Positions 1,602 through 11,397 of a DNA stretch of 11,397 nucleotides are shown here, piece by piece. The notes under the pieces were generated by a model. The model worked only from the letters and a program-made list of their open reading frames with translations. It had not been told where the DNA came from and searched no databases. The position numbers and the translations under genes are program-made. Within the stretch, counting starts at the first letter, position 1. The number at the start of each line of letters is the position of its first letter. Source of the stretch: a virus; IMG/VR virus record IMGVR_UViG_3300035701_000002, one strand, 5' to 3'.

Positions 1602-2336
1602 ATGAAAAAGGGTCCGAAGACGGGGCCCGGACTCCCCGCCGAGGCCGCCGAGGCCGTCGAGAGGTGCGTCGCGAGGATGGCGTCCAAGAAGGACGCTCCC
1701 TACTTCCGGCACTTTCTGACAGAGCTTGTGGCCAACAACGCCCTTCCGGCCGAGATCCTCGAACATGTGCCCGTCCCGGCGTCGGAGGTGGGTAAGACGA
1801 GGTTCGACCAGGTCTACGACGCCGCGATGGCCCTCGTTTTCCCCGGGTACAGGAGAGAGACCCTCGAGAGGCTCCTTGGGCCGCTCGAGGGTCGAGGGGG
1901 GAAGGTGTGGCGGGTTCTTCTCCCCGAGCGCTTCCGTATCGCCCACGTCCTGATCAGGGCCCGAAGCTTTCAGGAGGCCTTCTCCCTCGGATGCGACTAC
2001 GCCTGCCGGGCGTCCCTCCGGGCGTTCGGGAAGGTCCCTGTGGATCTGACGATAAGGGTCGTGTTCATGAGCGAGAGGGCCATACGCAGAATGCTGGACA
2101 TGCGCTGGGCCAACAAGCACAGAAAGCGACAGCAGCTCAAGCTCGTGGGGCGCGAGTTCACGGACAGGCAGGTGAACGGGGCCAGGCTCGTTGCGCTCGG
2201 GCATCCGAAGGACCCGAAGCACTCCGTGGTCAAGTACACGGAGAAGAAGGACCTGGACAAGGTCCGGAAGTCCCGCGGGATGACGCGCACCTCGTCGGTC
2301 GAGCACGAGTCGTACAGGGTCCCGAAGGAGCCGTAG
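1602..2336 (+). CDS. Hypothetical protein, 244 aa; first gene of the PurA-like operon
   Basis: The ORF has very high GC3. It stops with TAG 49 nt before the next gene, whose start carries a strong GGAGGAG Shine-Dalgarno motif, so co-transcription is likely. I recognise no domain. An internal alternative start (MASKK) is possible. Confidence 0.6.
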   Translation: MKKGPKTGPGLPAEAAEAVERCVARMASKKDAPYFRHFLTELVANNALPAEILEHVPVPASEVGKTRFDQVYDAAMALVFPGYRRETLERLLGPLEGRGGKVWRVLLPERFRIAHVLIRARSFQEAFSLGCDYACRASLRAFGKVPVDLTIRVVFMSERAIRRMLDMRWANKHRKRQQLKLVGREFTDRQVNGARLVALGHPKDPKHSVVKYTEKKDLDKVRKSRGMTRTSSVEHESYRVPKEP

Positions 2337-2385
2337 GGCCGACCGCTGTACTGTCCGTCATGAAAAGAACCTGTCGGAGGAGCAA

Positions 2386-3564
2386 ATGATCGAAGGTCGG
2401 ATGAACTTCATACTCGACGCTTTCTGGGGCTCGAGCGGCAAGGGGAAGACGTCGACGTGGCTCGCGGACCACCACAACGTGACGAACGTCTCGAGCTCGA
2501 ACTATCCGAACGCGGGCCATACGGCGCAGTTCGAGGACGGGACGAAGTTCGTGGCCAAGGCGATTCCGACGGCGGCCGTCCTGCGCAAGACTCGCGGCCT
2601 CGGGATGAGGTGCTTCATCTCCCCGGGATCCGGCTTCTCGCCGAAGCAGCTCCTGAAGGAGTGGGAGGAATGCGGCAGGCCGGACATGTTCGTCCACGAC
2701 CGTGCCAGCCTCGTGACCGAGGAGCACGCGGCCAGGGAGCGCGAGGGGTCCGAGTCGACCAAGCACATCGCGTCGACGATGCAGGGGTCCGGAACCGCCA
2801 TCGCGGACAAGGTCATGAGGAAGGCGGACGTCCAGCTCGCCGGCCACAACAGCGCATGGCTCGACGTCATCGCGGCGATGAGGCCGGAATCGTCCGACGA
2901 GATCAGGCGGAGGATTCAGGTCGTCCCGGCCATGGAGTTCAGGAACTTCGTCCACGGCGCGATCCGGGAGGGGAAGACCTGGCTTCACGAGGGATCCCAG
3001 GGCTACGCCCTCTCCATCGACCACGGGTCGCATTATCCGCACTGCACGAGCAGGAACTGCACGATCCAGGCGGCGATGGACCACATGGCGATCCCTCCCT
3101 CCATGGTCGGAGACGTATACCTCAACCTCAGGACTCACCCGATCCGGGTCGGGAACGTCGTGGAGGACGGCAGGCAGACTGGCTTCTCCGGAGGTTTTTA
3201 TCCGGACTGCCGGGAGATGACCTGGGAGCAGGTCGCGGCGGAGTCGGGAATGCCTCCGGCCGAGGCCGCGGAGCTTGCGGAGCGCGAGCGGACGACCGTG
3301 ACCAAGAGGATCAGGCGCGTCTGCACGTTCTCGTTCGAGGGCCTCCGAGACGCGGTCCGCGTGAACGGGGCGACGAAGCTCGTGCTGAACTTCATCCAGT
3401 ACGTGTGCTGGGAGGACAAGGGCCTCAAGGGCGGACGAGAGGCTTTCGAGAGCCTGTCAAGAAAGAGCCGCGAGTTCATCGACAAGGTCGAACGTGAGGC
3501 GAACCTTCCGGTCGTCCTCATCGGGACCGGACCGAACCACAACGAGATGATCGTCAGGGGGTGA
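2386..3564 (+). CDS. Adenylosuccinate synthetase family protein (PurA/PurZ-like), 392 aa, with a non-canonical P-loop and non-canonical GTP-specificity motif
   Basis: Family motifs seen in the translation: the P-loop GSSGKGK (canonical PurA has GDEGKGK); an exact NAGHT (catalytic His) at nt 2509-2523; EGSQGYALSIDHGSHYPHCTSRN (PurA has [22 protein letters not shown]) at nt 2989-3057; TKLV where PurA has TKLD (nt 3373-3384); and a C-terminal LIGTGPNHNEMI (PurA has ISTGPDRTETMI). A GGAGGAG Shine-Dalgarno motif lies 5 nt upstream. The TGA stop overlaps the GTG start of the next gene. Confidence 0.85.
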   Translation: MIEGRMNFILDAFWGSSGKGKTSTWLADHHNVTNVSSSNYPNAGHTAQFEDGTKFVAKAIPTAAVLRKTRGLGMRCFISPGSGFSPKQLLKEWEECGRPDMFVHDRASLVTEEHAAREREGSESTKHIASTMQGSGTAIADKVMRKADVQLAGHNSAWLDVIAAMRPESSDEIRRRIQVVPAMEFRNFVHGAIREGKTWLHEGSQGYALSIDHGSHYPHCTSRNCTIQAAMDHMAIPPSMVGDVYLNLRTHPIRVGNVVEDGRQTGFSGGFYPDCREMTWEQVAAESGMPPAEAAELAERERTTVTKRIRRVCTFSFEGLRDAVRVNGATKLVLNFIQYVCWEDKGLKGGREAFESLSRKSREFIDKVEREANLPVVLIGTGPNHNEMIVRG

Positions 3565-4040
3565 CCGTGGGCGGGGAGAAGAGCAAGCTCGTCCGTTTCT
3601 ACGAAGGTTCCGGGACGGACCATGCCGGGAGGAGCCTCAGGCAGATCTTGGCCTGGTCCGACGGCAGGCTGGAGTCAGTCCATGACTACATCCAGTGGCT
3701 GTTCCCGAACAGAAAGCCGAGCGACTTCAACCCGCACGCCCCGATCGTGACGCAGGACGACTCTGACGAGTTCAGGAGAAGGCCAGAGCTCCAGGGAGCC
3801 CTGTCAATGTCCGCGGACCGCATGGAGGCGTTCTACGACCTCGGGAGCACGAAGCCGTGGTGGGTAACCCCGTCCAACCACAACTATCTGAGGATAACCA
3901 GGGTCCTTCTCTCGCTGAAGGACCTGGGCCTCGAAGCGAGAGCCCTGTCCCTGTTTGAAAAGCTCTCGGACGTGTACACGGTGAACGTGGACGTGATTCC
4001 GTCGAAGACTGTGGCCCTCTGGATAAGTGCGATAGGATGA
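3561..4040 (+). CDS. OGFr N-terminal conserved-domain (opioid growth factor receptor-like) family protein, 159 aa
   Basis: The GTG start overlaps the PurA-like stop (GTGA). The motifs HDYIQWLFP(N)...NPHAP and HNYLRITRVLLSLKDLGLE match the human OGFR conserved region as I recall it (HSYIQWLFPLREPGVNWHAKP; NNLRITRILKSLGELGLE). GC3 is high. Confidence 0.7.
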   Translation: MTVGGEKSKLVRFYEGSGTDHAGRSLRQILAWSDGRLESVHDYIQWLFPNRKPSDFNPHAPIVTQDDSDEFRRRPELQGALSMSADRMEAFYDLGSTKPWWVTPSNHNYLRITRVLLSLKDLGLEARALSLFEKLSDVYTVNVDVIPSKTVALWISAIG

Positions 4041-4159: not shown

Positions 4160-4416
4160 GCAAGGCCGACGGCGTCCCCGAGGTCTTCGGAGAGGGGGAC
4201 GTGACCATAGTGATGAGCTCGACGGGGACGCGTCTCTACCTAGGGACGATCCTCGTCGGATGCCTGGAGAAGGTTGAGGCTTCCGCGGGCCCTGACGGGA
4301 TGAGCCCGTCGCTCACAGTCACGTTCCCGAAGAGCCACGAGACGGCCATGTCGACGACGATAGAGGAGAACGCGAGGGTCCTCAGGGCCGCGGGTTGGGT
4401 CAGGGTCCTTCAGTAG
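4156..4416 (+). CDS. Hypothetical protein, 86 aa; last gene of the coupled operon
   Basis: It is in the ORF track. The ATG overlaps the upstream stop. It ends with TAG and overlaps the 3' end of the convergent 4400..4975 gene by 17 nt. Confidence 0.5.
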   Translation: MSKADGVPEVFGEGDVTIVMSSTGTRLYLGTILVGCLEKVEASAGPDGMSPSLTVTFPKSHETAMSTTIEENARVLRAAGWVRVLQ

Positions 4417-4975
4417 GCGGGTCGGATCTCCTCTTCCTCTTCAGGTGAATTCCGACCTGGTCCGGGTTCTCGACCATGTACTTGTGGCAAGAGTGGAAGT
4501 AGTCCGGGATGGGGTGGGCGGCGTCCTTCATCATCAGGGACTCGAACACGGTCCGTCCTCCGGAGGCGCCCCACATCCAGTCCTCGTCGATGGGGACGTC
4601 CGGGGACCTCTGGCTCCAGACGTTCCCGTACGGGAACATGAGGAGTATGAACTCTTTTTTGGAGAAGTGCGGGTTCGGCATGGGCACGAACTCCTCCTTC
4701 CTCTTGATCGACAGGAACACGCCGGGCGGCAGGACGACGCCCTCGGGGGTCGAGGTTACCCATCTCTTGATGGACATCCACTTAACCTCCGGCGTCTTGA
4801 CCCCGGTCTTCTTCCGGCAGGAAAGCGAGCAGTTGTAGAGCGCCGACGGAGAAAGGCCGCAAGTCCACGGACTGAAGTCGTCCGGGACTCCCCGGAAGAC
4901 ATGCATGGACCTGAAGAACGGTATCTTGATGGCCTCAACGGCCTGCTGTACTTTCTCAAGAACTTCTTTATCCAT
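4400..4975 (-). CDS. Hypothetical protein, 192 aa (Lys-rich; unknown function), divergent from the ThyX-like gene
   Basis: The ORF track extends to 5062, but the first ATG with an upstream GGAG is at 4973-4975 (MDKEVLEKVQQAVEAIK...). GC3 is high over the body. I recognise no domain. Confidence 0.6.
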   Translation of the reverse strand: MDKEVLEKVQQAVEAIKIPFFRSMHVFRGVPDDFSPWTCGLSPSALYNCSLSCRKKTGVKTPEVKWMSIKRWVTSTPEGVVLPPGVFLSIKRKEEFVPMPNPHFSKKEFILLMFPYGNVWSQRSPDVPIDEDWMWGASGGRTVFESLMMKDAAHPIPDYFHSCHKYMVENPDQVGIHLKRKRRSDPPTEGP

Positions 4976-4990
4976 CGGGAGAGCTCCGAA

Positions 4991-6325
4991 ATGGCAGATA
5001 CAAAGGTGGACGTGTTTTGCTTGACCGACGGCCTCGGTCAGGTTCTTCACCCTGCAGTGCAAGCTACTGTACTGGCGAAGTACTCGAGATCCCCGATGTC
5101 GGCGAGGGACATCGTCTCAGGCCTGACCCTCGAGGAGGCGGACAGGTTCCAGGACAAGTGGGTCGTCGGATACGGCCACTCGAGCGTGGCGGAGCTCGCC
5201 ACGATACCCCTCTGCTTCGAGGGGGTGTCTATCGTCGCGTCCAAATTCCTGGAGTCATGGCAGAGGCCAGGGTACTCGGAGAAAAGCACGAGGTACCAGG
5301 CTTTCTCCCGGGACTCGTTCGTGAGCCCTCCGGGAGCCCCGAGCACCATGAAGCACTTCGCCTCCAGGCTGTACGACGCCTACGAGAGCCTCCTTCCGAA
5401 GGTCTCCGCGATCGTCGCAGCGAAAACGGGCAAGGACAAGGACGACAGGACCGTGAAGGCCCGGGCGTTCGACAACGTCCGGTATCTTCTTCCGGCCGGT
5501 ACGGGGACGAACCTCGCATGGGTGGGGAACGCAAGGGACGTTCGGTACATGATCTCCTCCGCACTCGGATCGACGAACCCCGAGTTCAGGGCCATCGGGG
5601 AGGCCGCGTCGAAGGCCGTGTCCGAGCTATGTCCGGTGTTCGTGCGGGACGCCGAGCCGGACTCGTTCGAGCCTACGATTCGCTCTCTGGGGAAGACAAG
5701 TCCGAAGTTCGACTACAGGAATCCAAGCTGGTACGTGGACGTACACAGGCCGCACCTGATGCCATCCCCCGATCTCGTACAGAAGTCGTTCGAGTCCTCC
5801 TTGGCCGACATGTACGGGATGAGCTGGACGGCGTTCTGCAAGCACATGGACTCCCGGGGAAAAAGGGCGGTCCCCAGAATCTTCAGGACAGCACGGATCG
5901 CGTTCGACGTCATGATGGACTACGGGGCGTACCGCGATCTCCAGAGGCACCGCCGGTGCGAGCAGTACCCGGAGCCGCTGGCGGCCGGATACGGATATCT
6001 GGTCCCGGACGACATACTCGGGACAGACCTCGAGGCCGAGTATCGGGCTGCCATGGACTCAGTCCTGGCGTACGAGGACGAGACCGTCGTCCACGACGAA
6101 GACCTCATGCAGTACATGATACCCCTCGGATACCTCCACAGGTCGGTCTTCGAGATGGACCTGGCCGAGCTGTACTACCTGTCCGAACTGAGGACTCAGC
6201 CTCAGGGACACATATCGTACAGAAGGGTCGCGTACGGGATGTACTCCGAGGCGTCCGCACTGATCCCCGGCCTGATGCGATGGTGTCGCGCTATTCGTCC
6301 GGACGAGATAGGCGAGCACCGGTGA
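4991..6325 (+). CDS. Tandem (two-domain) ThyX-like flavin-dependent thymidylate synthase family protein, about 444 aa, with complementary degeneration of the catalytic motifs in the two halves
   Basis: The start ATG at 4991 is preceded by GGGAGAG. The N-terminus (KVDVF...LAKYSRS) resembles a ThyX N-terminus. The N-terminal half has GHSSVAEL (ThyX HxSVxEH-like, nt 5174-5197), SEKSTRY (the ThyX SxRY motif, nt 5285-5296) and NARDVRY (ThyX NxRxLxHF-like, nt 5528-5548), but it has SWQ where RHR is expected. The C-terminal half has ...YRDLQRHRR (the RHR motif, nt 5945-5956) and LRTQPQGHISYRRVA (ThyX C-terminal LR...H..EIR..A-like, nt 6188-6229), but it lacks SxRY. The ORF-track entry 4445..6325 is the same frame with a spurious 5' extension antisense to the 192-aa gene. 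Confidence 0.75.
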   Translation: MADTKVDVFCLTDGLGQVLHPAVQATVLAKYSRSPMSARDIVSGLTLEEADRFQDKWVVGYGHSSVAELATIPLCFEGVSIVASKFLESWQRPGYSEKSTRYQAFSRDSFVSPPGAPSTMKHFASRLYDAYESLLPKVSAIVAAKTGKDKDDRTVKARAFDNVRYLLPAGTGTNLAWVGNARDVRYMISSALGSTNPEFRAIGEAASKAVSELCPVFVRDAEPDSFEPTIRSLGKTSPKFDYRNPSWYVDVHRPHLMPSPDLVQKSFESSLADMYGMSWTAFCKHMDSRGKRAVPRIFRTARIAFDVMMDYGAYRDLQRHRRCEQYPEPLAAGYGYLVPDDILGTDLEAEYRAAMDSVLAYEDETVVHDEDLMQYMIPLGYLHRSVFEMDLAELYYLSELRTQPQGHISYRRVAYGMYSEASALIPGLMRWCRAIRPDEIGEHR

Positions 6326-6528
6326 AGGAGGACCTGGCGACGAGGACGGCCCTTCTTCCGCCGGAGAAGAGGGACGAGATCCGCAACTCCCTCAGGACCG
6401 AGATGTCCTCGATGAGGGTGAAAAACCTTCGGAACACCATCTCGAAGCTCCTTCCGAAGCTCAGCAAGATGGGCCTCAGCGGGGGCGAGATCCTGTCGGA
6501 GGCCGAGAAGTTCCTGTCTCGGTCATGA
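6322..6528 (+). CDS. Small hypothetical protein, about 68 aa (VKEDLATRTALLPPEKRDEIRNSL...), translationally coupled to the ThyX-like gene
   Basis: The GTG at 6322-6324 overlaps the ThyX-like TGA (GTGA). The product is a Lys/Leu-rich helical-looking sequence with coding-like GC3. It corresponds to the last 69 codons of the otherwise spurious track ORF 5017..6528. Confidence 0.4.
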   Translation: MKEDLATRTALLPPEKRDEIRNSLRTEMSSMRVKNLRNTISKLLPKLSKMGLSGGEILSEAEKFLSRS

Positions 6529-6870
6529 CGGGGACTTCGGGTACATAACGTCAATCTGCCACGGGACGGTTTCGCGCTCATGGAGGACGGGCGGTGCGAA
6601 GATCTTCACGATCTCGTATATGACGTTCCCTGAGTCCTCGTCCAGGGTCGGCACCTCCGCGAGCGTGAGGCACGGGCCGGACGCCGACGCCGACCGGGAA
6701 TCTTCGGACAAGATTCCGGGGTCCACGGGGGTCCTCCCATATCCGCCGACGAGAGAGCATAGAGCTTTCTTATTGACGGAGTAAAGGAGAGGACTAGATC
6801 CCTTTCTAGGACAAGAAGAAGCAACCCGGCATTTCGTACACTCCATCTGAAGGTATCTGACTTGACCCAT
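6523..6870 (-). CDS. Hypothetical protein, up to 115 aa; the true start may be further downstream
   Basis: It is the only candidate ORF in 6529-6920. The C-terminal two-thirds has high GC3. The first roughly 45 codons (which carry a CxxC...C motif) have atypically low GC3 and lie in a lower-GC island, so an internal GTG or TTG start is plausible. Confidence 0.35.
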   Translation of the reverse strand: MGQVRYLQMECTKCRVASSCPRKGSSPLLYSVNKKALCSLVGGYGRTPVDPGILSEDSRSASASGPCLTLAEVPTLDEDSGNVIYEIVKIFAPPVLHERETVPWQIDVMYPKSPS

Positions 6871-6920
6871 GATGGACGCTACCGAGATGGACCGGGCGTT
6901 GACGTATAGACGGAAGGAAC

Positions 6921-7823
6921 ATGTCCCTTAAGAACGCGGCCGAAACTGAGACCATGAGAGATACGGGCAAAGGGCTTCCGGAGAAGGGGTTCTTCGAGCT
7001 CGACCTCATGTCAAGCAAGATCATGTGGATGAACGAGTTCTCCCTGACGAAGGTAGGGATGAACCTCGAGCAAGCACAGTCCATGACCGTCTACGACGTG
7101 GTCCCGGAGGAGTTCCACGACTCTCTGAGCAGCTTCATCTCCGACGCTTCGAGCGGGAGGACGTCCAAGTTCTACATCTGGCCGTTCCGATCCTCGGACA
7201 TGAGCGTCACGTGGTGGTACTTCGCCCGGTTCAAGTCGGACCACCCGACCCACTGGTTCAAGGCCGAGTTCCTGAACAAGACCGGGAAGTCGGGCCCAGA
7301 GTATTCGTCCATGCTGGCGGCCATGAACACGGCGAACAGCTACAACGACCTGTACAACAAGCTCTCGGACTTCCAGCTGTTCACCAAGTCGAACATCGAC
7401 TCCATCAACGAGAAGGTCCAGGAGCTGAAGGATGAGCAGGCCGTCTTGAAGGAGCAGATCGTGGGGGCGACGTCGGCGGCTAACAGGGCGGCGAACGCGG
7501 CCATCGACGTCTCGTCCGCCATGAGGAACTTCAAGACGGACGTCCAGGAGCAGTTCTCGAAACAGACGGTGGAGATCCTGCGCCTAATCAGCACGGACGC
7601 CGTCCACGACCAGCGGCTCGTGGCGTTCGAGAAGCACATACAGAAGACGACGGACAACGCGGTCCGCGTCATAACGGTCCAGGCGGACAAGGCAGGACAG
7701 ATCATCACGACGCAGGCGGACAAGGCCGGAAAGAGCCTGTCGAGGAAGGTCACGATCCCGATAGGCGCAATCGCGGCGGTAATGACGATCTTGCAGTGGA
7801 TCATCACGCACTGGCCCAAGTGA
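6921..7823 (+). CDS. PAS-like N-terminal domain, central coiled-coil and C-terminal transmembrane anchor protein, 300 aa
   Basis: A GGAAGGA Shine-Dalgarno-like motif lies 4 nt upstream of the ATG. The PAS-like segment is GFFELDL...YIWPFRSSDMSVTWWYFARF. The middle of the protein is rich in heptad-like Q/E/K/A residues. An imperfect tandem peptide repeat TVQADKAGQII/TTQADKAGKSL is present (the 14-nt direct repeat caggcggacaaggc occurs twice, within 7680-7730). The C-terminal hydrophobic helix is IPIGAIAAVMTILQWIITHW. Confidence 0.6.
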   Translation: MSLKNAAETETMRDTGKGLPEKGFFELDLMSSKIMWMNEFSLTKVGMNLEQAQSMTVYDVVPEEFHDSLSSFISDASSGRTSKFYIWPFRSSDMSVTWWYFARFKSDHPTHWFKAEFLNKTGKSGPEYSSMLAAMNTANSYNDLYNKLSDFQLFTKSNIDSINEKVQELKDEQAVLKEQIVGATSAANRAANAAIDVSSAMRNFKTDVQEQFSKQTVEILRLISTDAVHDQRLVAFEKHIQKTTDNAVRVITVQADKAGQIITTQADKAGKSLSRKVTIPIGAIAAVMTILQWIITHWPK

Positions 7824-7848: not shown

Positions 7849-8322
7849 ATGGGCTCAAGCGACCCGCCTGACGGCGAAATCAGCATAGAGATACCGCTCC
7901 CTCCGGGGACGGCCTCCTCGGGGCCGCCGGGAGGGAAGGATCACGGGCGCCTGAAGGCCTGGACGAACTTCATCGCCACCGCCGCAGCCCTGCTGGTCGC
8001 AGCAGCGGCGATACTGAAGCCACAGGACCACTCGACGGCCAGAGCCTCGTACGACGAGCTCAAGAAGGCTGTGGACGAGAACTCGCAGAACGACCGAAGG
8101 AACCACGAGGACCTCGTGGCCCTCAGGAACTACATGGACGGCTACCTGAAGGGGGCGGGGGCTGCGACGTCGCTCCCGTCGTCCATGCCGGTACCGTCGA
8201 CGTCCGGCTCAGCCAGGGCTATCCCCCCAGCTCCGGTCGCCACCATGCCTCCCCTCCCGGTACTCCATCCGGAGCCGAAGCCCCACAACCTTCCAGACTT
8301 CGACGCGGTGATGAAGAAATGA
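7849..8322 (+). CDS. Single-pass membrane protein with a Pro-rich C-terminal tail, 157 aa
   Basis: It is in the ORF track. The TM segment is WTNFIATAAALLVAAAAIL. The C-terminal region is Pro/Ser/Ala-rich. Its TGA overlaps the ATG of the downstream peptidase (ATGA). Confidence 0.55.
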   Translation: MGSSDPPDGEISIEIPLPPGTASSGPPGGKDHGRLKAWTNFIATAAALLVAAAAILKPQDHSTARASYDELKKAVDENSQNDRRNHEDLVALRNYMDGYLKGAGAATSLPSSMPVPSTSGSARAIPPAPVATMPPLPVLHPEPKPHNLPDFDAVMKK

Positions 8323-9260
8323 ACCTTCAAGGACTGACCGTCAACGGATACAGGGAAGCTCCGCAGGCCCTCTCGGACACCCACCCGAAGTTCGGGCTCG
8401 TCAGGGACGCGATGAGGGGGAGCGTCGACACGTACTACGAGGGCCAGTCCTCAGACCTGCGCGGCCTTTCCCCGAAGCGGCACAACCAGCTTCGCTCGAG
8501 CTCGTGCGTGGCCCAGTCGGTCGTGAGGGCGGCGGAGGTCAAGAGGATCCACAAGCTCTTCCTCACAGCGCAGGGGAGGGGGCTGGACATAGCGGCCGCC
8601 CTAGCCGAGGCTCAGGCCGGGCACGTCGCGCTCTCGAGGCTCGCCCTGTACTACCTGGCGAGGGAGATCATGGACCCCCCGGAGACGAGCCTGGACGAGG
8701 GGACGTACGTCTCGATGGCGGCCGAAGCCCTGAAGTCCTTCGGGGTCTGCAGGGAGGAAAAAAGCGCCACGAACCCGGCGGACCGAGCGTTCTGGCCGTT
8801 CGACCTGGGGACAGTCCCGGCTTCCGGCCGGGAGAGGATCTTCGAGTCCCCGACGTGGGCTGTCATGAGGGAAGCCTACCTCCACAAGATTCACGCCTGG
8901 TACAGGCTCGAGACCACCGGCGACGACCGCGTGAGGGACGTAATCCTCGCGCTTGCGGCGGGCAACCCCGTCGTCTACGGGACTCAGGTCGACGGGCAGT
9001 GGCAGACGTACGACGGTTCCGTCCCGCTCGGGACTCTGAAGAGCCGCGTCCTCGGAGGGCACGCGACCGTGCTCGAGGGATGGGAGCCGGGGAGGCAGCT
9101 CTTCCTCGGAGAGAACTCGTGGGGCGAGGACTGGGGCCTGACGGGGCCCGACGGGACCGGAGGGTTCTATGAGATCACTCCGGAGAAGATCGCCAGCAGC
9201 GAGTCGAACGACTTCGTGGTGATCGAGGGCGGCTGGGAACCGTGGAGGAAGGCGGCATGA
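8319..9260 (+). CDS. Papain-like (C1 family) cysteine peptidase, 313 aa, with no signal peptide
   Basis: The motif Q-x5-C in HNQLRSSSCVAQS matches the papain Gln19/Cys25 spacing. GGHATVLEGWE is like the papain His motif. GENSWGEDWGLTG...GFYEI matches the C1 hallmark NSWGxxWGxxGY. The first roughly 60 residues could be a prodomain. Confidence 0.75.
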   Translation: MNLQGLTVNGYREAPQALSDTHPKFGLVRDAMRGSVDTYYEGQSSDLRGLSPKRHNQLRSSSCVAQSVVRAAEVKRIHKLFLTAQGRGLDIAAALAEAQAGHVALSRLALYYLAREIMDPPETSLDEGTYVSMAAEALKSFGVCREEKSATNPADRAFWPFDLGTVPASGRERIFESPTWAVMREAYLHKIHAWYRLETTGDDRVRDVILALAAGNPVVYGTQVDGQWQTYDGSVPLGTLKSRVLGGHATVLEGWEPGRQLFLGENSWGEDWGLTGPDGTGGFYEITPEKIASSESNDFVVIEGGWEPWRKAA

Positions 9261-9571
9261 GGTCTCTGAGAAGTTTTTTTGCCGTCCTGTTGGTCGGCGT
9301 CGCGATCTCATCCGGATGTGGGCCGAAGAAGCCGGTCGTGCACGTCCCGACGGACACGGCGGACTGCCCGTCGGCATGCAAGCACCTCCGCGGGGAGGAC
9401 GGCTCAGGACTGAGCTGCGACGAGGGCAAGCCCCTCCCGGACGGGACCACATGCGAGAAGTTCTGTGCGGACACCCAGAACTCCGGACACGCTCTGGTTC
9501 CGAGCTGCGTGATGAAGGTCACACAGTGCTCGGACATGGACCACGTGGAAGACTTCTGCCCGAAGAAGTGA
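9257..9571 (+). CDS. Small Cys-rich secreted lipoprotein, about 104 aa (9 Cys; mature part about 85 aa with 8 Cys)
   Basis: The ATG at 9257 overlaps the peptidase TGA (ATGA). A GGAGGAAGG Shine-Dalgarno motif lies 4-12 nt upstream. The signal peptide MRSLRSFFAVLLVGVAISSG-C carries a lipobox-like SSGC. The Cys count suggests four disulfides. The track ORF 9242..9571 is the same frame with two extra N-terminal codons. Confidence 0.6.
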   Translation: MRSLRSFFAVLLVGVAISSGCGPKKPVVHVPTDTADCPSACKHLRGEDGSGLSCDEGKPLPDGTTCEKFCADTQNSGHALVPSCVMKVTQCSDMDHVEDFCPKK

Positions 9572-9581
9572 GACGGGCCTG

Positions 9582-9806
9582 ATGTTGGAGGACGTCCGGT
9601 GCGGCCTCCACAGCGGGATACCTGCGTGCTGCATAGCGTGGTACCTGGGCCCATGGAGGCTCGTGGGGTACGGAAGAGCTCCGCGCATCAGGCGGACGTA
9701 CTTCGAGCTGCTCGACGGCTTCGGGCACATCGCATGCCCCCTGTGCTTTCTGAAGGGCAGGGTTGTCGAAGTCAGAGAGTGCGATTGCCATTCCGCCGGG
9801 CTGTAA
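9582..9806 (+). CDS. Small Cys-rich (zinc-ribbon-like) protein, 74 aa
   Basis: It is in the ORF track. The Cys pattern is C-x8-CC ... CxxC ... CxC (8 Cys and 3 His in 74 aa). It ends with TAA 8 nt before the next gene. Confidence 0.4.
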   Translation: MLEDVRCGLHSGIPACCIAWYLGPWRLVGYGRAPRIRRTYFELLDGFGHIACPLCFLKGRVVEVRECDCHSAGL

Positions 9807-9814
9807 GCTCGAGG

Positions 9815-10429
9815 ATGGAACAGACAGACCTGATAGCGCTCATCGACCTGGACGGGACCGTGGCGGACTACGACTCCGCACTGATTGAGTCCATGAGGGC
9901 CATCCAGTCGCCGGACGAAACCCCGTACAAGAACCGGTACGAGGACGGCGGCGCAAGGGAGGAGATACCTCACGTTGAGGCCCGAAGGAGGCTCATCCAG
10001 AGGCAGCCTGGCTTTTGGAGGAACCTGAAGCCGCTGCCGGCAGGGTTCGAGGTGGTGGACGAGCTCAGGTCTCTCGGATTCTCGCTGCACGTCCTGACGA
10101 AGGGACCCGTCTCCACGCCCGTGGCGTGGAGCGAGAAGGTCGAATGGTGCCAGCGCCATCTCGAGGACGCCGTAGTGACGGTCACCGGCGACAAGAGCCT
10201 GGTGTACGGGCGTATACTCGTGGACGACTTCCCGCCGTACTTCACGAAGTGGCTGACCGTGAGGCCGCGCGGGCTCGTGGTGTGCATTGCCCACCCGTGG
10301 AACGCGGGGTATGCGAAGGGCGAGAAGCAGGAGCACCCGAACGTGCTCAGGTACGACGGGACGAACCGGGATGAGCTCAGGGCCAGGGTGCAGCGCGCGT
10401 ACGAGAGGACCGCGGGCGGGGGATTGTAG
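9815..10429 (+). CDS. HAD-superfamily 5'(3')-deoxyribonucleotidase-like hydrolase, about 204 aa
   Basis: The N-terminal LIDLDGTVADYD is HAD motif I (DxDGT), as in NT5C-type nucleotidases (DMDGVLADF). The second acidic motif is near the C-terminus (GRILVDDFP). The true start is the internal ATG at 9815 within the track ORF 9599..10429. GC3 is high. Confidence 0.7.
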   Translation: MEQTDLIALIDLDGTVADYDSALIESMRAIQSPDETPYKNRYEDGGAREEIPHVEARRRLIQRQPGFWRNLKPLPAGFEVVDELRSLGFSLHVLTKGPVSTPVAWSEKVEWCQRHLEDAVVTVTGDKSLVYGRILVDDFPPYFTKWLTVRPRGLVVCIAHPWNAGYAKGEKQEHPNVLRYDGTNRDELRARVQRAYERTAGGGL

Positions 10430-10441
10430 ACCTGAGCTGCA

Positions 10442-10470
10442 AACGTTAGGCTTTCCTTGAGCCTTTCGTT
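10442..10470 (+). terminator. Candidate weak intrinsic terminator or stem-loop after the HAD gene
   Basis: The imperfect inverted repeat aacgttaggct-ttccttg-agcctttcgtt has 9 of 11 positions pairing and is followed by a T-rich tttcgttcg. It lies 13 nt after the HAD stop. The structure is marginal. Confidence 0.25.
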
Positions 10471-10472
10471 CG

Positions 10473-10628
10473 ATGCAGAACGAGTCCATCACGGTAGTCG
10501 TTCCGGCTCCTGCTTTCGTCACGTCGGACGTAACGGCCAAGCCGCACCAGACAATCCTGTGCGACTCGTCCTCCGGGACCCCGTTCAACATAACGTTGCC
10601 GAACGCGGCAGTGTGGCAGGGGGCGTAG
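10473..10628 (+). CDS. 51-codon ORF (MQNESITVVVPAPAFVTSDVTAKPHQTILCDSSSGTPFNITLPNAAVWQGA) ending at an in-frame TAG, in the same frame as the downstream fiber-like gene
   Basis: It is not in the ORF track because it is short. GC3 is very high. The Thr/Val/Ser/Ala/Pro-rich composition matches the downstream repeat protein. It could be the N-terminus of that protein interrupted by TAG, or a separate small gene. Confidence 0.4.
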   Translation: MQNESITVVVPAPAFVTSDVTAKPHQTILCDSSSGTPFNITLPNAAVWQGA

Positions 10629-10643
10629 GTCGTAGTCAAGGTA

Positions 10644-11397
10644 GTGGCTAGCGGTGCGAACCTGACAGTCCTGGCCCAAGGTGGGACGGTCGAGGGAGCG
10701 GCGAGCTTTATCATTCGTATCCAGAGTCAGCTGTGCTCCTACACGTTCCAGAGCGACGGAGTGTCGAACTGGGACCTGACGCAGAAAATAGCCCCTGTCA
10801 AGAGCGGGACGCAGAACTACTCGGTCATTGTCGGCGGAGAGAGTGGAAACACCGCCACAAACGTCAGCTCGGTGGTCGTCGGAGGCTTCAACAACACATC
10901 CAGTGGGTCGAGCTCCGGGACTCTGTGCTCACAGGGGTCGACGGCCAGCGGGACGAGGAGCGTGACTCTTGGGGGGAACGCATGCACGGCGTCAGGGACG
11001 GATGGAGTGTGCATCGGGGGTTCCGGGACGCTCGCGTCAGCCTCAAACACGCTCGCCACCGGCGGAGGGCATGCGACAGCTCAGGACGCCCTCGCCATAG
11101 GACGGGGCACCGTCGCATCCGCACTCTTCTCACTAGCCATCGGAAGGGACGCTCAGGCCACCGTCCAAAGTCAGACGGCCATAGGGGTCGGGACAGACCA
11201 ATACGGAGATCCGAACGCCCGTAACTGGCTTGTCCAGTCGGGAGAGTCCGTCGGAGGGGCGTCGGGGGACATGGACTTCGACTTCGCCGTAAACGGAAAG
11301 ACATACGCCCTGTGCATAACCGTATTGGGGAGCCGGCAGGACGCGCAAGGGTGCAACGTGCGAACGTTCACCGGCTTGATCCACGGTTCCGGCGGAT
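10644..11397 (+). CDS. Gly/Ser/Thr/Ala-rich repeat protein (phage tail fiber / adhesin-head-like), 3'-partial, running off the right edge
   Basis: The frame is open from 10629 to the window end with no stop. The first start-like codon is GTG at 10644. The product has repeats such as SVIVGGESGNTATNVSSVVVGGFNNTSSG..., VTLGGNACTASGTDGVCIGGSGTLASASNTLATGGGHATAQDALAIGRGTVAS and LAIGRDAQATVQSQTAIGVGT. These are reminiscent of fiber or trimeric-adhesin head repeats. The edge-truncated ORF is not in the ORF track. Confidence 0.55.
   Translation, partial: MASGANLTVLAQGGTVEGAASFIIRIQSQLCSYTFQSDGVSNWDLTQKIAPVKSGTQNYSVIVGGESGNTATNVSSVVVGGFNNTSSGSSSGTLCSQGSTASGTRSVTLGGNACTASGTDGVCIGGSGTLASASNTLATGGGHATAQDALAIGRGTVASALFSLAIGRDAQATVQSQTAIGVGTDQYGDPNARNWLVQSGESVGGASGDMDFDFAVNGKTYALCITVLGSRQDAQGCNVRTFTGLIHGSGG

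Follow-up and report, generated by a model that had tools for sequence, protein, structure and literature searches.

The 11,397-nucleotide stretch of viral DNA in IMG/VR record IMGVR_UViG_3300035701_000002 (hereafter the window, meaning that whole stretch) contains a gene for a long-form ThyX, a flavin-dependent thymidylate synthase in which two ThyX domains follow each other in a single chain of 444 amino acids (aa). Neither domain has a complete set of catalytic residues, and what one has lost the other retains. Taken together, the data indicate that the gene probably encodes a working enzyme that would act as a dimer with two composite active sites and produce deoxythymidine monophosphate (dTMP) from deoxyuridine monophosphate (dUMP). 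The two parts of this explanation differ in strength: canonical dTMP synthesis is very probable, and the specific two-site dimer, which we infer from the positions of the residues, is likely.

Two ThyX domains in one chain

The ThyX reading frame is intact over its 444 codons, and its G+C content at third codon positions (GC3) is 0.82, compared with 0.58 and 0.45 in the other two frames. The gene matches phrog_36506, ‘thymidylate synthase’, with an E value of 1.2e-23, and a protein identical to its product carries the JGI name ‘thymidylate synthase ThyX’. Against the Pfam family Thy1 (PF02511), which has a curated gathering cut-off of 24.8 bits, the whole protein scores 105.1 bits over two matched stretches. 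When the chain is divided and each part is scanned by itself, both parts remain above this cut-off, with 70 bits for the N-terminal half (aa 1–230; E 3e-19) and 39.1 bits for the C-terminal half (aa 231–444; E 8.9e-10). Comparison of profiles gives the same result. A 62-sequence family alignment was cut into halves, and each was aligned by hhalign with ThyX of Thermotoga maritima, using a query sequence checked to be 100% identical to PDB 1KQ4/1O26. The probabilities are 95.9% for the N-half and 94.0% for the C-half, and the two halves align with one another at 94.0%.

Structure prediction also reveals a repeated fold. For the full chain, AlphaFold gives a model with a predicted local distance difference test (pLDDT) score of 92 and a predicted template modelling (pTM) score of 0.88, the same succession of helices and strands occurs in both halves, and the PDB matches of the model are all single-domain ThyX chains, each of which covers one half. 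The C-half modelled alone reaches a pLDDT of 89, and all of its top 50 Foldseek matches in the PDB are ThyX crystal structures. Matches of the full and C-half models to the ThyX fold have a probability of 1.00 and template modelling (TM) scores of 0.56–0.67 per domain. When the C-half by itself was searched against PDB sequences, no ThyX was retrieved, so the homology of this half rests on the Pfam, hhalign and fold searches. The domains are joined by a linker (aa 219–247) that lacks regular secondary structure in the model and whose length varies more than that of any other region in the family alignments.

Both halves are thus ThyX domains, related to each other and to ThyX well beyond chance. 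The first-pass annotation of this DNA, prepared from the letters alone, had described a single polypeptide of about 444 aa with two ThyX-like halves, and separate scans against PF02511 bear this out. It had also named a finding that would overturn its reading, namely that the C-half has no relation to ThyX and resembles it at RHR and LR by chance; both the profile alignments and the fold reject this possibility.

Catalytic residues are divided between the domains

Residues were mapped through the hhalign register onto the numbering of T. maritima ThyX (Tm), and Table 1 lists the motifs with their equivalents. The N-half contains the GHSSVAE segment, the dUMP-binding loop EKSTRY, the R147 equivalent R164 and the NAR segment, and has K85 at the position of Tm R74. 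It has lost RHR, in place of which SWQ is aligned, as well as Tm R174 and Tm H178, which are replaced by S190 and S194. The C-half is the complement. It retains R315 at Tm R74, R319-H320-R321 at RHR and R401 at R174, and H407 lies 1–2 residues beyond the Tm H178 column. Missing from it are Tm H53 (K291), S88/R90 (a gap and P329), R147 (Q374) and N163/R165 (D390/A392). Equivalents of Tm H53, T55, R74, RHR, E86, S88, R90, Y91, R147, R165, R174 and H178 are each present once in the polypeptide and are conserved, with K85 standing in for R74 and H407 off the H178 column by the 1–2 residues mentioned above. Their convergence in a single active site would depend on the dimer proposed below. The contiguous RHRxxSxxxxSxR signature is found in neither domain; RHR occurs in the C-half only and S-x-R (S99-T-R101) in the N-half only.

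The loss of catalytic residues is thus truly complementary between the halves. The motifs quoted in the first-pass annotation are all present in their places (GHSSVAE, SWQ, STRY, NAR, DLQRHRR at aa 316–322 and LRTQPQGHISYRRVA at aa 400–414), as is the GTGA overlap at the end of the gene. Its description of an N-half without RHR and the downstream LR, and of a C-half that keeps RHR and lacks SxRY, agrees with the register. An ordinary long-form ThyX with all motifs intact in one half, which it had set out as a second finding that would overturn its reading, is rejected, as neither half is complete and the motifs are divided between them.

The split is shared by the long-form family

Long-form ThyX proteins are numerous. 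More than 1,782 homologues of the window protein occur in a set of 5.8 billion proteins, and the best 120 of these share 58–100% identity with it and are nearly all 440–450 aa in length. When 1.84 billion representatives of clusters defined at 50% identity were searched exhaustively with HMMER, 2,628 clusters were returned at E<=1e-3, including 284 at E<=1e-30; the best 150 of the 2,628 are nearly all 430–560 aa long. Among GTDB species, each represented by a single genome in the scan, at least 594 have the long-form gene. These include complete Sorangium chromosomes, Polyangiales, Armatimonadota, Methylomirabilota/NC10, Entotheonella, DPANN archaea and Patescibacteria, and the family is also found in Chlamydiae and jumbo phages. 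Blocks of aligned motifs exhibit the split distribution in the window protein, Chlamydia trachomatis, Chlamydia pneumoniae, Sorangium, the Tunturiibacter phage Tunturi_5 and others.

Conservation was assessed in 408 aligned long-form sequences belonging to three groups: the clade of the window protein, diverse representatives and Chlamydia-like proteins. In the N-half, S99, R101 and R164 are conserved at 99–100%, E97 at 92–100%, Y102 at 89–100% and R182 at 85–99%, and H63 and S65 are conserved at 95–100% in the phage and cellular clades. In the C-half, R319/H320/R321 are conserved at 97–100%, R401 at 99–100% and H407 at 98–100%. Lost positions are never restored: none of the 408 sequences has RHR in the N-half, and none has the S-x-R loop or an R147 equivalent in the C-half. 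Separately, an Asp at the N-half position of Tm H53 is seen in Chlamydia alone. Across this alignment, the complementary split is a trait of the whole long-form family and is not peculiar to the window protein.

The residues that would serve a second pair of sites degenerate by degrees across the tandem ThyX clades. In the N-half, the phage clade of the window has Q for the third Arg of RHR and A, G or S at R174, and in the C-half it has D at N163 and K, Q or A at R165. Chlamydia, Sorangium and many cellular members retain D-x-R and K/R at R174 in the N-half and N-x-R in the C-half. The window protein is an ordinary phage representative of the long-form ThyX proteins, a class that is large and has already been annotated. 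Domain duplication of ThyX was already remarked in Chloroflexi in 2009 (PMC3224940); beyond that note of a duplicated domain, we found no account of the complementary split in the searchable open-access literature.

Proposed assembly and function

Structures of the Mycobacterium tuberculosis (Mtb) and Helicobacter pylori enzymes reveal that a canonical ThyX site is built from three subunits (PMC6514825). Subunit A supplies RHR (Mtb R95–R97) and R199 (Tm R174); subunit B supplies S71 (Tm T55) and R190 (Tm R165), which reach the phosphates of flavin adenine dinucleotide (FAD); and subunit C supplies R87 (Tm R74), the backbone at Q103 (Tm E86), S105, R107 and the lid residue Y108 (Tm S88, R90 and Y91) (PMC6514825). 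The equivalent of Tm H53 is probably part of the subunit B role. Transferred to the window protein, role A could be filled by the C-half only and roles B and C by N-halves only. One site would thus need one C-half and two N-halves, and a single chain cannot supply a whole site.

The proposed arrangement is a homodimer whose four domains would mimic the canonical D2 tetramer. Two of its composite sites would be complete, with the RHR of one C-half at the centre of each and with that C-half and both N-halves contributing, and two would be degenerate, since an N-half would have to provide RHR and R174 there. For each 444-aa chain, such a dimer is predicted to bind roughly one catalytic FAD. The enzyme would make dTMP from dUMP for a jumbo phage, with methylenetetrahydrofolate (CH2-H4folate) as carbon donor and reduced FAD; most jumbo phages carry ThyA or ThyX (PMC7824862). 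The graded loss in the clade of the window fits two sites per dimer, because the residues that have gone are those that would serve the dead sites only. The first-pass annotation had proposed a gene-fused pseudo-heteromer with composite sites and subfunctionalised halves, a proposal that gains support at the level of sequence and fold and fits the make-up of the canonical site (PMC6514825).

Several points weigh against this explanation. The dimer geometry is deduced from a bookkeeping of residues rather than from a multimer model or coordinates, and neither the PDB copy nor the literature searched contained a tandem ThyX structure. The NCBIfam equivalog model TIGR02170 (thyX) gives 41.5 bits, below its cut-off of 87.9, with its best-matched stretch in the N-half only (aa 61–219), so that this curated model does not place the protein among the equivalogs of single-domain ThyX. 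In addition, degeneration at several positions has gone further in the clade of the window than in the cellular long forms, which makes extrapolation from the Chlamydia enzyme imperfect.

Thymidylate could also be made by a different assembly, such as a single chain with one intramolecular site, a tetramer built from tandem chains, or a protein in which one half is mainly a scaffold, for example a remnant that binds NADPH or a nucleotide. The monomer model is compact, with the pTM of 0.88 given above, and the retention in cellular proteins of D-x-R and K/R at R174 in the N-half and of N-x-R in the C-half hints at residual function of the ‘dead’ sites in some clades. Assemblies of this type nevertheless appear unlikely for the window protein. 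The canonical site draws on three subunits, roles B and C both need an N-half so that a single chain is insufficient for the three roles, and the residues of the second pair of sites are lost in this clade. It could further be argued that the missing motifs represent damage in a decaying, non-functional relic, since neither half by itself has all the residues that are essential; T. maritima ThyX requires R174 and S88/R90, and structures of mutants at these positions are among the PDB matches. Decay is scarcely credible, however, for a protein whose losses are exactly complementary and whose retained residues are 97–100% conserved across homologues down to 28% identity. The gene itself is intact, with strong coding GC3, and its synteny is kept in relatives at 70% identity.

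The first-pass annotation had left room for a ThyX-fold enzyme with altered chemistry. The protein might be a C5-methylase of uridine monophosphate (UMP) or deoxycytidine monophosphate (dCMP), or a hydroxymethylase that provides a modified pyrimidine for phage DNA, and the rearranged motifs would then form a new active site. A ThyX-fold enzyme with another substrate does exist, PolB (PMC5003785), and a review of jumbo phages allows ‘thymidylate or a modified pyrimidine’ as the product of phage thymidylate synthase homologues (PMC7824862). DNA modification of another kind is probable in this element, given its PurZ-like gene (see below), and the failure to reach the TIGR02170 cut-off also suits this idea. 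The contacts for uracil, phosphate, FAD and folate speak against it, as each is present once per composite site and near-invariant, and the motif rearrangement is family-wide rather than a trait of the window phage. Moreover, the closest homologue from an isolated phage, gp50 of Tunturi_5, is encoded directly downstream of a dCMP deaminase and near a dUTPase, both enzymes of dUMP supply. To our knowledge, the known dUMP hydroxymethylases are homologues of ThyA and not of ThyX, which likewise counts against altered chemistry. Chlamydia shares the split, and its protein has been assayed: after cloning and purification, C. trachomatis ThyX served in assays of activity and of inhibitors (PMC3498832), and Chlamydia is reported to depend solely on the flavin-dependent enzyme for dTMP (PMC6514825). 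We regard altered chemistry as very improbable.

A further suggestion concerns the PurZ-carrying clade, in which ThyX might make, or help to make, another C5-modified pyrimidine, or might use the product of the small overlapping reading frame as its dedicated partner. It arises because this clade has lost all traces of the second pair of sites and because a small overlapping frame always follows ThyX. This is a long shot; if it were true, the phage would combine purine substitution (Z for A) with pyrimidine modification.

Working dTMP synthesis by a two-site dimer remains the preferred explanation. For the window itself little changes, as its ThyX-type thymidylate synthase call is correct and the enzyme would supply dTMP for a very large phage genome. 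The wider interest lies in the long-form family, which is widespread, includes a drug-target enzyme of Chlamydia and has its active-site residues strictly split between domains. If the two-site pseudo-tetramer is true, it offers clean predictions for FAD stoichiometry and mutagenesis and a natural example of subfunctionalisation after gene fusion.

Gene boundaries and genomic neighbourhood

Coordinates of the ThyX gene, its parts and its principal neighbours are collected in Table 1. The start of ThyX is placed at 4991 because the close homologues are all 440–450 aa long and align from residue 1; a GGGAGAG stretch is located 8 nucleotides (nt) 5’ of this ATG. A GTG at 4445 was considered as the true start and rejected, since the extension overlaps the conserved minus-strand gene at 4400–4972. 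The start codons of this divergent pair, that of the 190-aa minus-strand ORFan at 4972 and that of ThyX at 4991, are just 18 nt apart. Given this gap and the failure to find a sigma-70-type promoter at window positions 4300–7000, the promoters of the pair must lie within coding DNA or be non-canonical. No Rfam families or tRNAs were found near the ThyX gene. One terminator-like hairpin was detected, inside the ThyX gene, a count at or below chance expectation.

Table 1. Positions of the ThyX gene, its domains and motifs, and neighbouring genes in the window. Tm, T. maritima ThyX; Mtb, M. tuberculosis ThyX; ORF, open reading frame.
Feature	Position	Strand	Basis
Long-form (tandem) ThyX gene, flavin-dependent thymidylate synthase, 444 aa	4991..6325	+	Translation, Pfam Thy1, phrog_36506, GC3
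N-terminal ThyX domain, aa 1–218	4991..5644	+	Pfam Thy1 alone, hhalign, secondary structure of model
GHSSVAE, aa 62–68; H63 = Tm H53, S65 = Tm T55 (Mtb S71, FAD contact), E68 = Tm E58	5174..5194	+	Alignment
SWQ, aa 89–91, on Tm R78-H79-R80 (RHR lost)	5255..5263	+	hhalign register
EKSTRY, aa 97–102, dUMP-binding loop; E97 = Tm E86, S99 = Tm S88, R101 = Tm R90, Y102 = Tm Y91	5279..5296	+	Alignment
R164 = Tm R147, N-half only	5480..5482	+	Alignment; C-half equivalent Q374
NAR, aa 180–182; N180 = Tm N163, R182 = Tm R165 (Mtb R190, FAD phosphate contact, subunit B)	5528..5536	+	Alignment
Inter-domain linker, aa 219–247, no regular secondary structure	5645..5731	+	DSSP of AlphaFold model
C-terminal ThyX domain, aa 248–444	5732..6322	+	Pfam Thy1 alone, hhalign, model of half, Foldseek
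RHR, aa 319–321, FAD/dUMP-binding motif, = Tm R78-H79-R80	5945..5953	+	Alignment
LRTQPQGH, aa 400–407; R401 = Tm R174 (Mtb R199, dUMP contact)	6188..6211	+	Alignment
68-aa ORF, GTG start overlapping ThyX stop (GTGA)	6322..6528	+	Sequence; GC3 0.88; gene call in L003, L004
Divergent gene beside ThyX, 190 aa	4400..4972	-	ORF list; called 190–191 aa in L001, L005; GC3 0.83
PurZ-like adenylosuccinate synthetase homologue, 392 aa	2386..3564	+	Pfam PF00709; phrog_1211, E 1e-60; PDB matches

The 68-aa open reading frame (ORF) that follows ThyX is a real gene, and the GTGA shared by its start and the ThyX stop occupies positions 6322–6325. Its counterpart in a relative at 70% identity is 85 aa long, has the identical 4-nt overlap and shares 28% identity with it (pairwise E 5e-7). 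It has no Pfam or PHROG family match and is probably just co-translated with ThyX. The first-pass annotation had called this a translationally coupled protein; the overlap is real and the position is conserved, and the overlap is the only tie to ThyX that was found. The 190-aa minus-strand gene likewise has no match in Pfam or PHROG.

Larger contigs carrying the gene help to place the element. A protein identical to the window ThyX occurs on metagenomic contigs of up to 203 kb, relatives at 70% identity occur on contigs of 303–445 kb, and IMG/VR relatives occur on viral contigs of 393 and 274 kb. Most neighbours are ORFans without a Pfam or PHROG family, and a jumbo-phage lineage is the best reading of the element. 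Gene order is conserved in a relative at 70% identity, which has a PurA-like gene, small genes, the 190-aa minus-strand gene, ThyX and the overlapping small ORF. Two paralogues of NT5C-type 5’(3’)-deoxyribonucleotidase are encoded within ~7 kb, one at window positions 9815–10429 (plus strand) and the other just past the window (L001 16951–17517, minus strand). These add to a theme of nucleotide-pool remodelling, and ThyX sits in a nucleotide-metabolism neighbourhood with the PurZ-like gene and NT5C.

Other genes of the window lie further downstream. A 313-aa protein encoded at 8319–9260 (plus strand) has a weak C-terminal match to Peptidase_C1, the papain family (Pfam E 5e-5), and matches phrog_16701, ‘peptidase’. 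The ORF at 9242–9571 (plus strand) overlaps it; this is called as a Cys-rich protein of 104 aa with a lipoprotein-like N-terminus (...VAISSGC). Long ORFs of up to 503 aa are also present in other frames or on the opposite strand, among them 2230–3138 (minus), 9404–10714 (minus) and 5017–6528 (plus). Their Arg/Pro/Gly-rich translations and the GC3 pattern suggest that they are shadow ORFs of a genome with 62% G+C and not genes.

A PurZ-like gene and possible Z DNA

The best PDB matches of the PurZ-like protein are PurZ of phage phiVC8 (6FKO/6FM1; E 2.6e-32) and PurZ of phage S-2L (7ODX; E 5.9e-30). In its P-loop, GSSGKGK, a Ser takes the place of S23, which the S-2L study lists as a PurZ-specific substrate contact (PMC8342488). 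The gene is syntenic with ThyX in L005–L007. Since PurZ structures are the best matches and Ser is present at the S23 position, this 200–445 kb phage lineage may make DNA containing 2-aminoadenine (Z). No DatZ or MazZ homologue was recognised among the neighbours in the window by Pfam, PHROG and PDB searches. The Z-genome phages described in the literature examined belong to the Siphoviridae and Podoviridae (PMC8599892). Z DNA in a lineage of this size would, if true, be of greater interest than ThyX.

The gene that follows the PurZ-like gene, at window positions 3561–4040 (plus strand), starts in a GTGA overlap and encodes an OGFr_N domain (Pfam E 1.5e-13; phrog_38436). The relative at 70% identity has a NADAR-domain protein in this slot instead (L005 8338–8913). 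The exchange looks like a swapped cassette beside purZ.

Comparison with known systems

Canonical ThyX, represented by T. maritima TM0449 (PDB 1O26) and M. tuberculosis Rv2754c (PDB 3GWC), has the fold found in each half of the window protein, and its residue set is equalled once the two halves are summed. Canonical subunits are ~220–250 aa long and form a homotetramer with four equivalent sites, and each subunit carries all motifs, including the contiguous RHRxxSxxxxSxR. In the window protein, by contrast, the motifs are split over two domains and only two sites could be complete, and identity to the canonical enzymes is 14–22%. PolB, a UMP C5-methylase of polyoxin biosynthesis (PDB 4P5A), also has the ThyX fold and carries out FAD-dependent C5 methylation (PMC5003785). 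It differs in being a single-domain protein with ribonucleotide-recognition loops encoded in an antibiotic biosynthesis cluster, whereas the neighbours of the window gene are phage nucleotide-metabolism genes and ORFans. PolB (4P5A) is absent from the PDB sequence matches of the window protein at E values of up to 1.

Other large phages encode proteins of the same tandem architecture, including Tunturi_5 (gp50), Microcystis phage Ma-LMM01 (A0A7D4) and the Vibrio phages Yong and BONAISHI. Their genomes are 160–310 kb in size, and tblastn alignments cover 80–93% of the window protein at 23–29% identity. Long forms of this type also give full-length structural matches in BFVD, with TM-scores of 0.69–0.78, and are annotated as thymidylate synthases, that of Microcystis phage LMM01 being one example. 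Tunturi_5 gp50 (518 aa, 29% identity), which carries the same annotation, has two Thy1 stretches and the motif split of the window protein. The window protein differs from these phage proteins in belonging to a separate, metagenome-only clade of more than 120 members at 58–100% identity, found on contigs of up to 445 kb.

The first-pass annotation knew of no characterised tandem ThyX, but the 529-aa ThyX of C. trachomatis, purified and assayed (PMC3498832), has both the architecture and the split. An approximate Chlamydia sequence was used as bait only, and the argument rests on the real proteins retrieved. One of these, P0397, is named ‘FAD-dependent thymidylate synthase [Chlamydia trachomatis]’, is 529 aa long and occurs on 520 contigs; another, P0425, is the 531-aa CPn_0746 of C. 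pneumoniae. Two Thy1 stretches each are found in P0278, the representative of the 90%-identity cluster that contains P0397, in P0282 of C. pneumoniae and in P0183, as in Tunturi_5 gp50. BLASTP aligns residues 7–426 of the window protein with residues 26–502 of CPn_0746 at 28% identity (E 4e-49), so that the C. pneumoniae protein and the phage protein are alignable end to end.

The likeness between the phage protein and the Chlamydia enzymes (CT632 of C. trachomatis and CPn_0746, 529–531 aa) extends to the details of each domain. Their N-half is without RHR (EDARIGG) and has EKS[ST]RY and the R147 equivalent, and their C-half has DLQRHR, AQY with Q for R147, and ELRSQPQGH, and no S-x-R loop. 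The Chlamydia proteins are cellular rather than phage-encoded and ~85 residues longer, owing to N-terminal and linker insertions. In their N-half, D replaces Tm H53, the third Arg of RHR is kept (D-A-R) and K/R stands at R174; in their C-half, the N-x-R at Tm N163/R165 that the window protein has lost is kept. The catalytic mechanism of C. trachomatis ThyX was reportedly addressed by Griffin et al. in 2005.

An analogous history is known from the monomeric dUTPase of herpesviruses. There too, an enzyme with sites between subunits became a duplicated single chain in which the catalytic motifs are complementary in the two halves and there are fewer sites per domain. The fold and reaction are unrelated to those of ThyX, and that duplication turned a trimer into a monomer with one site, whereas the long-form ThyX would have turned a tetramer into a dimer with two.

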